From IMG/VR virus record IMGVR_UViG_3300013901_000005, positions 32,001 through 96,000 of that record: a DNA stretch of 64,000 nucleotides; one strand, 5' to 3'. The DNA is from a virus (taxonomy: Duplodnaviria > Caudoviricetes). The translations under genes were made by a program, and so were the position numbers. Of the stretch, positions 29,291 to 61,415 are shown in pieces. The notes beneath the pieces are model-generated. The model searched no databases and was not told where the DNA came from. It saw nothing but the letters and a program-made list of their open reading frames with translations. Positions within the stretch are counted from its first letter, which is position 1. Every line of letters starts with the position of its first letter.

Positions 29291-32263
29291 ATGGAAACAC
29301 CGAAAACATACAAATTTAACGATAAGAATTATAAATTATCAGATTTTCAGTCTTCTTCAAATGAGGGCTGGGATGAATACAGAAGTGCTTTGAGAGATGG
29401 AGAGAAAAATCAAGATGCTTTGAATTAGGCATATGATTATATGATAGACGGTATTAATAATGGAACAATAACAATTAAAGATGGGAACTTTTATACAAAT
29501 GATGAAAATATATTAAATAATAAATAGTTATATGGAGAGGTGACATATTATTTGAAAAGACAATTAGGCAAATCAAATGAATATATATCACCAGAAGAAA
29601 AAAGAAAGGTTGCATTGACAAATTCAGCTTTTGCAAATAATTTCAATAACTATATGTTTAATAGCAATGCATTTAATACAGAAGATTTTATAAATCTTGA
29701 TACACCGGATGAGAAAACTGGAAAGAGAGCAACGACAAATCGGGTTGCGGCAATCGGTAATTATCTAAACCAAATTGATCTTGATAGGGATTTTAAAGAT
29801 TTTGATGATGTAACTAGACAACGATACGCACAATATATTGACGATGCAAAAAAGGCCGTTGCTGACGGAACGATAACTTCAAATGAGTATCTAGCATTAT
29901 CTAGACTTTTTGGACAACAGGGAAATTGGAAAAATATTTTTACAACTGAAAAAAATCTTTCTACTACCGATTCAGATGATAATCAAACAACCGGAACCGA
30001 AACAACTGCTGCTCAACAAACTCCACAATAGGTTTTGGAAAATTATATGACAACGGAAATACCAGAATATACTGGAAAGGAAGAATCTTATAATGTTGAT
30101 ACAAACCTGAAATTTGGAAAAGGAACACAATAGATTTGGGGTAATATGATGCGTATTATCTCAAATGAGGCATTGATAAAAATGTTGTTATTATTAAATA
30201 ATGATCCTAAACTAACTTTAGATAAATTTGATTATATATAGAGAGCTGCAAAGCAAACCGGTGCTGATAAATTACGTTTTGTAATGCCAACAAGTGATTA
30301 GGCAAAATATCTGATTTTAGGGAATTTAAAATCTAGAAATCTTCTTACTGATATTGGTGATGGCAAATATATGTATTATATAAATAAATCACCATATGCG
30401 CTTATTTGGGATACAAAATAGAAGAAGTTATTTAAGACTGCTGCAAGAAATGTTGAATATATTGTAAGGGATAAATTGAATCAGTTTAGAAGTTCAAATG
30501 GAAATGCTTCTGACAACTGGTATACAAAATATATGTAGGATAATAATACTTCATAGGTTGAAAGCGATAAAAAAGGCGGTGTGCTAAAGGCTCAGACAGG
30601 AATGAAGGCGTTATTTGATTATTCGTTAAATTTTAAACCATAGGCTCCAGATTTTATGAGCTATTCACCAAGTTCTAGTTGGTTTACAAAATATTATGAT
30701 ACAAATCTTCCTAGTGGTGGATATACAGGATCTGACTACAATAAAGCTGTTTTTTATACTGATGATGATTTAAAAAATACAAATAGATATCGCAGATGGT
30801 ATAATCCAGAAACAAAACAATATGAATTATAGAATAGAGGTGATGCTGCGTCTACTGATAATATATCAGCTGGGAATGGATTATATGATGTAGAGGGGAT
30901 TGATGGATCATAGACACCTGACGAGAATCTCGAAGCAATGTCTTGGAATAGCGATTGGATACAACGTTTGATTACTAATGAAAAACTAGCAGAATCTTTT
31001 GCTAGACGATATAAGGATTTAAATGGATCAACAAATGGCGCATAGGCTTCAAATTGGTTTAATCCAGATGGGACTTTTAATTTTGAAAAATTCAAATAGG
31101 AAATACCAAATGGAAACGGAAAACTTTTTGTATGGTCTGATAAATTAAACGGTATAGGCCACGATGTATATAAAGGAAGAATGTATGGCATTTTTGACCC
31201 AAGTATAAATCAGGTTGTATATTATAATAATATACCAGAAGGATATAAGGTTAACGGAGACGCTAAATCATTTAATGATATTACTGATTTATATATGTTA
31301 GAAAAGGATCCGAGCTATAAAGCAAAAGGAAATGACGGAAAGCAAATAGGATCAACAAATAATATAAAAGATCTATAGGTAGATAACCCATATGACAAAC
31401 TAGGAAAGGCTGATTTGTTAGCTTTAAGCCGTTTAAGAATGGTATTGGATAACAATAAAAGAAATGCCGATATATTAAAAAGAGGTCTTACCCCAGTACA
31501 ATATGATACTTATAGGGAAAATTCACCTATCACTGGAGCATATACAACAATGTCCCAATATGGGAATATGGCTGCAAAAATCAATAGCCAAATGGCGGAT
31601 ATGCAGTCCGCTGACGGACGGGCTAGAATATTGGCATAGCTTAAAGGCGCATCATAGGCTGATGAATTAAGATAGAAAGGTATTGCAGCGGATGTTGCAG
31701 AACGGGCCCGTACAGAGCAATTATCCAGACAATATGAAAACCAGAATAAGGAACGTAGGCAGACAATAGCAAATAAAAATATTGATAATCTTGCTGCTTA
31801 TAGAAAAGAGCTTTCAAGTATTGATGCTAATAGAAATATGGCTGATTTTACAAGTAAGGATACTTATTTGAAATAGTATGAAGCTGATTATAGATAGAAG
31901 CAACTTAAAAAGAAACAAATGTATGATAATTATATCAAATCAATTGCTGATGCTGAGATTACATCATTCTATGCTGACGAAATGAAAAAAGCATCTAATG
32001 ATTTTAATAACTGGTATTCACAGCAGTCTACTGTAAATTAGAACGATGCTTCTTTGTTGAAAATGCAACCAGAATACTAGAAATATGAAAAAATAATGAG
32101 TGATATTAAAATCAAACAAAATGCCAAAGCATTATAGACGTATATGGCAATTACGGGTCAAAATTACATACCAGATAATTATTGGATAAAACCAAAAAAT
32201 TTATAGGATAAAAAATATAAGACTGGAGGAAAACTAATTCCTAAAAATAAGTTTTTGAAATGA
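29291..32263 (+). CDS. large cargo-type protein (990 aa; TAG=Gln)
   Basis: Track fragments 29540, 31181 and 31415 share a frame; ends YKTGGKLIPKNKFLK. Confidence 0.72.
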
Positions 32264-59815: not shown

Positions 59816-60472
59816 TTACCATTGTATCCAGGTTAAACAATTTACGTTATTCTGTATCTGATATTCTATTTTTGATTTTAATTCCAAAAATGATATTGGC
59901 CTATAATAGTTAAAATCAACTCCTACGTCATATTGATTTGGGAAAAGTAATTTTAACCTTTCGAAATCCTTTCCAGTATTCTTATCTTTAAATACATTTA
60001 AATGAACGTGGCCAAATAATTGCCAAGGCTGATTATTCTTTTTATATGTACCATCAAGGCATAAATATGGATAATGATTTAAATATATTTTTTGATCATC
60101 AATTATAAGTGTCATTTGCTCACTAACTCCATCAAAAAGTTTCATTGTTTTCTCTCCAGGATATCGACTTCGATCGTGATTTCCTAAAATTAGATAATGA
60201 TAACCATTTAATTGATTCAAAAGTTCTTTCCAGCGCCCGTTTGAAGCAAATGCAAAATCTCCTAAATCAAACACGATATCATTAGGTTTGACAAATCTAT
60301 TCCAGTTTTGAATAATATTTGAATCCATATCCTCGGTTGTTTCCCAAGGTCTTTGACAAAACTTTAGAATGTTTTTATGTCCAAAATGCAGTTACAGGTC
60401 GGAGGTGAACCATATATTCACCTCCGACGACTTCAAAATTAAAGGTTTAACATTTTTAAATATATTTTCCAT
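59816..60472 (-). CDS. calcineurin-like metallophosphoesterase interrupted by an in-frame TAA (recoded gene or pseudogene)
   Basis: MENIF...IWFTSDL*LHFGHKNI...LGDF...GNHD...NHYP...GHVH; all other metal-binding motifs are intact. Confidence 0.82.
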
Positions 60473-61331
60473 AAATTTTTATAATTTTAGTTATATTAGA
60501 TGTGGATGTATTAAATTTTTTCGATATATCTTTATTTCTTATTCCAGCTTTATAAGCCTATAAGACTTTTTCTCTTAATCTAGATGCGATAACATATTTA
60601 CTAGTATAATTTAAATTAATAATATCCCATTTTCTAGTTAAAATAGGTATATTTAAACTAAGTATTTTAATTTTTAATTTTTTTAGATCTTCTGTATTTG
60701 AAATTACAAGATTAGCATATCCGCTAGAATTTAATCTAGTTAAATTTTTATCAGAAATCATATTATTAAATTCTTTTAAAATAGATATCCAACTAGAATG
60801 ATTTTTTATTGTTAAATAAAAATCTTTTCTATTGAATTGATTTTTAATGCTACCATCACCATCTATAAACCCTGCTAATAAAGCATAAGTTAAATCTATA
60901 TTAAATTTTAATATCGTATTTGGAGGATTATATGTTTTCTTATCCTTAATATCAAATTTTTCTTTTATTTTACTAACTGTATCTATATCTTTATAAGCTA
61001 TTGAAATAGATTTATCTGTAACACGAATCATTCCAGTATAATTTATAAATTTAGCAAATTTATATAAATGATTAGAATCTTTAATACTTAATGTCAATAC
61101 CAATCTATTATTACAAAAACATCCATCTGCTAGCAAAAACCCCATCCAATAAAATGCCTCTGGAGTATCTAACAATAAATTAGATAAGTTTGCACAATGT
61201 TTTTCTTTCTATTTTTCTTTGCCAGCACAACTTTTGCATATAGAATTGGCTTTAATAGCATGATTATATGTTATTTCATTTTTATATATTAATCTTTTTC
61301 CACAACTTAGACAAATTCTTTCAAATTTCAT
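60456..61331 (-). CDS. free-standing double-motif LAGLIDADG homing endonuclease with N-terminal CxxC..CxxC and C-terminal HTH-like tail (TAG=Gln)
   Basis: YWMGFLLADGC and LLAGFIDGDGS motifs; frame extends through two TAGs to ATG 61331 and TAA 60456. Confidence 0.82.
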
Positions 61332-61415
61332 AACATTTATATTTTAGCATATAAAAAATAAAATTATTTATAAATAATCAATTTGTTATTTGTGACAAAA
61401 AATATTCTTCATTTG

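Follow-up and report, generated by a model that had tools for sequence, protein, structure and literature searches.

The window analysed here, 64,000 nt of a 155,233-bp gut phage record in IMG/VR (IMGVR_UViG_3300013901_000005, positions 32,001 to 96,000), carries on its minus strand a metallophosphoesterase (MPE) gene that is broken by an in-frame stop codon, reading ...NIWFTSD-CTG-TAA-CTG-HFGH, and whose start is overlapped by 17 nt by a free-standing homing endonuclease gene (Table 1). Uninterrupted homologues read KPLKLNSSEVDIWFTSDLHFGH, and the N-terminus encoded in the window matches them, so that the gene is a normal MPE gene with six extra bases, TAACTG or CTGTAA, placed inside the D-x-H metal-binding motif. 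Beyond the interruption the frame stays open (LHFGHKNIL...) until a stop at 59818-59816, and the part after the interruption by itself matches PF00149 (Metallophos; 22.8 bits, cut-off 21.5) and phrog_547 'phosphoesterase' (E = 5e-43); a search of NCBIfam returned no family, and the nearest solved structure is 1XM7, whose N-terminus is MYFISDTHFYH. The motifs D-x-H, GD, GNH[DE], H and GHxH follow each other in order, the D-x-H motif being complete only if the 6 nt are skipped, and the existing gene call covers 170 residues that do not include the catalytic Asp. Judged from its sequence, the window gene codes for a normal calcineurin-type metallophosphoesterase with a 6-nt coding gap in the first metal-binding motif. 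A preliminary description of this DNA had reported a TAA between identical Leu codons, a 12-bp inverted repeat beside it and an otherwise intact gene; all of these, with their coordinates, were confirmed on the minus strand, including the open frame to 59816 and the catalytic motifs. The succession of hairpin, codon, stop and matched codon occurs once in the 155-kb genome and not at all in three shuffled genomes.

The endonuclease gene (61331-60456) has two LAGLIDADG motifs in one chain, GFLLADGCF and AGFIDGDGS, with no intron or intein context, and its product matches PF00961 with 23.3 bits (cut-off 23.1). The reading frame contains two in-frame TAGs, at 61211-61209 and 60560-60558, and is intact only if both are sense codons, in keeping with the code of this genome; relatives have Glu at the position of the second. 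The endonuclease may be made only once TAG suppression is active.

Table 1 Features of the interrupted MPE locus
Feature	Position	Strand	Basis or remark
MPE start codon ATG	60472-60470	-	Coordinates re-checked on the sequence
MPE 5' coding segment, ATG to take-off codon, 26 codons, MENIFKNVKPLILKSSEVNIWFTSDL	60395..60472	-	
Candidate stimulatory hairpin, 12-13 bp, ending at the Asp codon	60398..60428	-	Folding and covariation
Hairpin 5' arm, GTCGGAGGTGAA	60428-60417	-	
Hairpin loop	60416-60410	-	
Hairpin 3' arm, TTCACCTCCGAC, coding for F-T-S-D	60409-60398	-	
Take-off codon CTG (Leu)	60395..60397	-	Read from the sequence; co-varies with the landing codon across lineages
In-frame stop TAA, followed by C	60392..60394	-	TAG-only recoding; TGA in L002-L006, L018, L025
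Landing codon CTG (Leu)	60389..60391	-	Directly 5' of the resume codon CAT
Resume codon CAT, His of D-x-H	60388-60386	-	
MPE 3' coding segment, HFGH to stop; motifs GD, GNHD, H, GHxH intact	59816..60388	-	PF00149, phrog_547
Free-standing LAGLIDADG gene: Zn-ribbon, two LAGLIDADG motifs, C-terminal HTH	60456..61331	-	PF00961
Possible remnant of a displaced MPE 5' end, ATGAAGAATATTTTT...	61386..61412	-	Aligns with the L002 MPE start; tentative

Both the stop and the sequence around it are genuine. Reading TAG as sense lengthens the longest open reading frame in the genome from 612 aa (code 11) to 3208 aa, and the genome encodes a tRNA with anticodon CTA (C1 151589-151662) and no tRNA that reads TAA or TGA. 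Because only TAG is recoded and TAA has no tRNA, the TAA at 60394-60392 is a true stop, and its decoding as a sense codon is ruled out by the ORF statistics together with the tRNA set. The identical site is present in three further independent assemblies (L007, L008 and L009), four in all, which argues against an assembly error and led us to reject that explanation. Nor is the insert peculiar to this genome, a possibility raised earlier: besides these assemblies it is found in diverged relatives, among them a sister lineage (L002-L006, L018, L025) that reads GAC CTG TGA CTG CAT behind the same hairpin, has no endonuclease gene and has a downstream MPE protein about 20% diverged from that of the window.

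The interruption recurs in MPE genes of many other phages. A scan for F-T-S-D, any nine bases and H-F-G-H, which left the content of the spacer unconstrained, returned six viral loci, all of the form CTN-stop-CTN, and 26 metagenomic loci, comprising 20 true MPE genes and six unrelated chance matches with random spacers. All 20 MPE loci are codon-stop-codon, never with a sense codon in the middle; the three stop codons are all represented, and one lineage reads CAA TGA CAG (D-Q-stop-Q-H). At the same D-x-H site, variable-gap scans and the sampling of 80 relatives uncovered gaps of other lengths, namely +5 (ACC TAA CT, ACT TGA CT, ACT TAA CT and TCC TAG CT), +7 with take-off from a His codon (CAC TGA C CAT and CAT TAG C TAC), +8 (ACC TAG TG ACC, ACC TAG GT ACT, ACC TAG TA ACC, ACC TAG GC ACT and ACG TAG TT ACG), +9 (TCT TGA AAA TCC, in a bacterial MAG), +11 (ATC TAG CGAGG ATC, in L137) and +12 and +14 (ACC TAG ... 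ACT); a scan for gaps of 15-44 nt with the same flanks gave only the +12 and +14 cases. Altogether the scans gave about 23 distinct gaps of +5 to +14 nt across dozens of diverged phages, many loci being near-copies, so that counts of loci overstate the number of independent events. A search for related loci with a single protein gave nothing, and blastn against GenBank phages gave only weak matches, to Lak phages and others, with no cultured phage carrying the gap identified.

Nearly all of these gaps share one organization. In the final count, the stop follows the first codon immediately in 20 of 21 distinct real gaps (L127 is the only one without a stop), and in 19 of the 21 the landing codon shares the first two bases of the take-off codon, compared with one stop and no combination of stop and codon match among about 54 chance matches. 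In all the real gaps the landing codon lies directly 5' of CAY-TTY-GGN-CAY, and skipping the gap restores D-x-H-F-G-H. The take-off and landing codons co-vary as CTN/CTN, CAA/CAG, ACC/ACT, ACG/ACG, ATC/ATC and TCT/TCC, and the amino acids concerned are Leu, Gln, Thr, Ile, Ser and His; the exceptions, matching in two of three bases only, are L129 (TCC to GCT, positions 2-3) and L124 (CAT to TAC). The +8 clade retains the stop and its matched Thr codons, whereas its two spacer bases vary freely (TG, GT, TA, GC, TT). In agreement with what the preliminary description had proposed to look for, the NNN-stop-NNN arrangement is thus retained across very diverged phages with co-varying flanking codons.

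The hairpin that precedes the take-off codon is the other recurrent element. RNAfold lengthens the perfect 12-bp inverted repeat (60428-60398) to 13 bp, and a 111-nt stretch folds with -28 kcal/mol (z = -4.5), a stability that none of 200 shuffles equals. In nearly all interrupted lineages the hairpin has the F-T-S-D codons as its 3' arm and ends exactly at the Asp codon, while the interrupted genes of L020, L131 and L142 have no clear hairpin. Compensatory changes in the stem, suggested earlier as a check, were found: in 13 sequences with a 10-bp form of the stem, 98.5% of cells are paired and four of the ten pairs have changed on both sides, giving a covariation score of 0.42, compared with 0.20 in shuffles, none of 500 of which attains it, and sliding the pairing partner in this alignment abolishes the pairing. 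On the sense strand several of the pairs are G-U, an indication that the folded molecule is RNA. Moreover, for the 45 nt ending at the Asp codon the median folding energy is -18.4 kcal/mol among 36 distinct interrupted sequences and -5.8 kcal/mol among 51 uninterrupted ones; in a slightly different de-replication, of 33 interrupted and 46 uninterrupted sequences, hairpin strength differs with a Mann-Whitney p = 2e-10 that is not corrected for relatedness. At equal locus GC, 3.3 of the 4 F-T-S-D codons end in G or C (GC3) in interrupted genes, compared with 1.0 of the 4 in uninterrupted genes. From these comparisons the hairpin is under selection.

The hairpin is not exclusive to interrupted genes and was also seen in 6 of 46 distinct uninterrupted sequences (L010, L012, L050, L089-L092). 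These are the uninterrupted genes nearest to the interrupted clades, and their hairpin is weaker, sits at the same place and shows compensatory changes; it may either pre-date the gap or outlive its loss. The SD-like GGAGGTG that had been pointed out in the 5' arm is indeed there, with a perfect match, although a role for it does not follow, since this sequence is the forced complement of the F-T-S-D codons. Together with an ATG in the loop it opens a 12-codon ORF in another frame (60375-60413, minus strand; MVHLRPVTAFWT, then a stop), which is probably a by-product of the stem sequence and in which the change from TAA to TGA is synonymous. We rejected this alternative frame as the functional product because it codes for nothing conserved and would lose D-x-H. 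A function of the hairpin as a DNA palindrome recognized by the endonuclease is likewise unlikely in view of the sense-strand G-U pairs, the three nuclease families involved and the occurrence of the hairpin at nuclease-free loci.

Taken together, the comparative data make a hairpin-assisted, programmed +6 hop of peptidyl-tRNA-Leu the most likely reading of the window MPE. In our model, the ribosome would translate 26 codons and come to a halt, its P site occupied by peptidyl-tRNA-Leu paired to CUG and its A site by UAA, in a context that would be poor for termination, with C after the stop and Asp at position -2. The 3' arm of the hairpin, formed by the 10-13 nt that immediately precede the P site, would at this point lie inside the ribosome with the 5' arm and the loop already outside; zipping of the hairpin would pull on the mRNA, and the anticodon would release its codon and re-pair with the next CUG 6 nt downstream. 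Decoding would then resume at CAU, reading nine bases as one residue and yielding the product ...FTSD-L-HFGH... with the junction peptide SSEVNIWFTSDLHFGHK, while ribosomes that fail to hop would release a 26-residue peptide. The distance over which stem zipping could draw the mRNA would be roughly one arm length at most; gaps of +5 to +11, the commonest, fall within it, and the two longest, +12 and +14, are a little longer than the 10-bp arm found in their clade. We infer the hop, its efficiency and the driving role of the hairpin from the observed anatomy, conservation and co-variation. The base after the stop is C in most variants, and C in this position makes a weak termination context, as in the RF2 gene prfB, where a programmed, autoregulatory +1 frameshift at CUU UGA C is stimulated by an SD 3 nt upstream. 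In prfB, too, peptidyl-tRNA-Leu slips at a stop followed by C in a weak termination context, but it moves by +1 onto an overlapping codon with an SD as stimulator, whereas landing in the MPE would be non-overlapping with the hairpin as candidate stimulator.

That the stop is bypassed rather than read through, as had been proposed, is supported by the comparative tests of codon matching, gap length, stem covariation and selection. Read-through or recoding of the stop would make D-L-X-L-H, an active site longer by two residues, and the in-frame gap of the window and the recoding of TAG already present in this genome would both suit it. Gaps that are not a multiple of three (+5, +7, +8, +11 and +14) put the two halves of the gene in different frames and exclude read-through for the genes concerned; for the window, where the frame is maintained, the exclusion rests on relatives. 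There, any of the three stops occupies the site, depending on the lineage, the unbiased scans never have a sense codon in the middle, and the D-x-H spacing is invariant in 79 uninterrupted loci; in the phage itself, UAA and UGA are without a cognate tRNA. We hold read-through to be extremely improbable. The production of two polypeptides, that is, the 26-residue N-peptide and a C-fragment re-initiated at or after the landing codon, which might assemble non-covalently or give the C-fragment a different function, has in its favour that bacteria do terminate and re-initiate at an adjacent codon and that CTG is a possible weak start. The landing codons of relatives, however, include CTC, CTA, CTT, CAG, ACT, ACC, ACG, ATC and TCC, none of them a start codon, the matching of the flanking codons would be left without a reason, and a C-fragment lacking strand beta-1 and the Asp ligand would be unlikely to fold or bind metal, as the MPE fold and the alignment with 1XM7 indicate; we hold this reading to be very unlikely.

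Just as slim is the chance that the 6 nt are removed before translation or absent from part of the population, through RNA processing or editing, polymerase realignment between the CTGs or DNA heterogeneity. Short direct repeats do flank the stop, but polymerase realignment would need a repeat longer than 3 nt, the third base is frequently not shared between take-off and landing codon, excision of 5-14 nt is not known from any bacterial or phage system, and the gap is present in all assemblies, which come from many samples. A knock-out allele, in which the six inserted bases, possibly left by the repair of an endonuclease cut, inactivate a dispensable gene and are tolerated because they make the site uncleavable, with no full-length enzyme made, strikes us as improbable, if less so than the other three readings. 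It would account for the endonuclease genes that adjoin many interrupted copies, it fits an enzyme that is not a universal phage gene, and synthetic stop-hops are indeed inefficient. Against it, dN/dS within interrupted clades is 0.04-0.18 where dS is estimable, dS being saturated in most pairs, so that the downstream part has not come under the relaxed selection that had been considered beforehand; for the 3' segment of the window gene against relatives the values are 0.09-0.18. Ten interrupted genes that are only 28-38% identical to that of the window keep all catalytic residues invariant, ORFs of 170-225 codons remain open in AT-rich DNA, the N-terminal codons are still in frame with the start codon, and the stop identity, the landing match and the hairpin are conserved or co-vary while spacer bases drift. 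On these substitution patterns, both halves of the interrupted MPE genes are under purifying selection.

The interruption of MPE genes is linked to homing endonuclease genes. In a tblastn survey with 11 endonucleases as queries, all taken from interrupted loci, an upstream endonuclease gene was present in 23 of 42 interrupted loci with enough flank and in 1 of 79 uninterrupted loci, many loci being near-copies. The 23 comprise 18 LAGLIDADG, four HNH-like and one GIY-YIG gene; Pfam confirmed the LAGLIDADG and GIY-YIG assignments, and the HNH/NUMOD matches were weak. Homologues of the LAGLIDADG gene of the window lie upstream of interrupted MPE genes in L015, L021, L110, L126, L134, L136 and others. 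The co-occurrence of interruption and endonuclease gene that had been expected is thus borne out as a strong link, and not as a constant presence, for the sister lineage lacks the endonuclease. Among interrupted relatives of the window lineage, the first ~85 nt of the MPE gene are 91-100% identical and the rest 50-85%; the C-terminal parts of those genes do not form one clade (AU p = 8e-5), and in a tree of 192 sequences interrupted and uninterrupted genes are intermingled. We lean slightly towards an origin, inferred from these patterns, in which the upstream homing endonuclease would lose its target site to the gap, and a 5' cassette of about 85 nt containing the gap would spread by co-conversion and outlast loss of the endonuclease gene.

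Several loci bear possible traces of the traffic of endonuclease genes. In the window, the possible remnant of an MPE 5' end (61412-61386) lies directly after the stop of a thioredoxin gene and aligns with the MPE start of an endonuclease-free relative. In L137, an HNH-like gene is preceded on its 5' side by a stranded fragment, ...IIFISDLHFGHF, and followed on its 3' side by the working MPE copy, whose 11-nt gap contains GAGG; by analogy with MobA/gene 60 cassettes, the fragment looks like the displaced original 5' end. L021 and L026 have an interrupted MPE that is broken again ~230 nt past the hop site, right after the GNHE motif, by an insert coding for another LAGLIDADG protein; the insert may represent a group I intron, or else a codon block for a catalytic motif may have been invaded by an endonuclease a second time. 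The only uninterrupted MPE with a related LAGLIDADG gene upstream is that of L060; its motif is FFVSDTHWSH, and it may escape cleavage through substitutions instead of a gap.

In our literature search, gene 60 homologues and a phiHau3 terminase candidate were found and nothing on stop-hops in MPE genes. The closest parallel is bacteriophage T4 gene 60, with its 50-nt bypass and MobA cassette, which has matched take-off and landing codons and a stop directly after take-off (10.1101/2022.08.31.505936; 10.1101/2024.12.09.627546), a 5' stem-loop formed by the mRNA exiting the ribosome, and an adjoining free-standing homing endonuclease gene in a cassette with its own copy of the flanking coding sequence of the host gene. 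In gene 60, pairing of the exiting mRNA has been proposed to drive forward bypassing (10.1101/2024.12.09.627546). The MPE system differs in its gap of 5-14 nt instead of 50 (20 in one clade), which is too short to hold a take-off stem-loop of the gene 60 type and contains none (the gap has 6 nt in the window, and the spacer 3-11 nt in relatives), and in that the MPE hairpin abuts the take-off codon. In addition, no KKYK-like motif is visible in the nascent chain, whose 12-26 residues are the enzyme's own N-terminus, and the mini-SD 5' of the landing codon is absent from the window gap and found only in L137 (TAG CGAGG ATC). The host gene codes for an MPE rather than a topoisomerase, and the endonucleases are LAGLIDADG, HNH or GIY-YIG proteins rather than MobA.

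CTG-TAA-CTG is exactly the design of stop-hops made synthetically in E. coli (Weiss et al. 1987; O'Connor et al. 1989), as covered by a 2016 review (PMC5009743), and the same review states that such constructs work in E. coli and that no natural occurrence is known (PMC5009743). The synthetic sites were engineered and hopped at a low level without a dedicated stimulator, whereas the MPE site is natural, conserved and coupled to a selected hairpin. Synthetic stop-hops have also been described as low-efficiency events (10.1101/2022.08.31.505936), so the yield at the window MPE may be small. The terminase gene of Streptomyces phage phiHau3 is a candidate for bypassing of 7-10-nt inserts at rare UUA codons, and it resembles the MPE genes in its short gaps at a conserved junction of a phage gene, its slow A-site codon and its proposed 5' stem-loop (PMC10732093). 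Its trigger, however, is a rare sense codon tied to regulation of the host tRNA and not a stop, although a UUA to UAA switch allowed recoding in E. coli, and the inserts are confined to one phage group, in which 3 of 100 genes have them and no link to homing endonucleases has been reported, unlike the MPE gaps with their many lineages and hosts (PMC10732093). The mobile 'byp' elements of Magnusiomyces capitatus mitochondria, as cited in the 2016 review, are likewise many short inserts in coding sequence made harmless by matched-codon bypassing, but they are mitochondrial, consist of 27-55 nt with GC-rich hairpins inside the gap and are not tied to one catalytic motif (PMC5009743).

Ribosomes most likely hop over the MPE gaps, as the sequence comparisons indicate, by a mode of decoding so far known only from T4 gene 60 and from synthetic constructs. 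We also think it likely that the gaps constitute a family of minimal, portable bypass elements in phage MPE genes and the first natural stop-hops, each with a 10-13-bp hairpin that abuts the take-off codon, followed by a stop and, after 0-8 spacer bases, by a matched landing codon. Such elements would operate in hosts of several bacterial phyla with no nascent-peptide signal, would owe their origin and spread to the immunity that they confer on the target sites of at least three unrelated homing endonuclease families, and would use the hairpin as a mechanical spring that sets the maximum length of the hop. Programmed bypassing has long rested on T4 gene 60, as one well-studied case, and on yeast mitochondrial elements. 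If our reading is correct, a selected series of gaps of 5-14 nt with a simple hairpin as the only obvious stimulator provides a minimal, tunable system in which it could be asked why the ribosome releases its codon, how far it slides and how the landing site is chosen, and homing endonucleases can repeatedly drive recoding into host genes. Because gene callers split or shorten interrupted MPE genes, annotation pipelines miss enzymes that are predicted to be active.

Finally, we note two unusual loci. In L127, 14 nt (ATTCATTTTTTATC) separate D from H-F-G-H with neither a stop nor a hairpin, a CATTTT stretch is duplicated and a LAGLIDADG gene lies on the opposite strand; the gene could be dead, or be expressed through a frameshift or a hop from Phe. 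A pattern scan of 185,579 prokaryote genomes gave 36 chance matches and one real case, L180, on a Capsulimonadaceae MAG chromosome, where the +9 gap TCT TGA AAA TCC stands behind a hairpin of -24 kcal/mol; this locus is probably a prophage.
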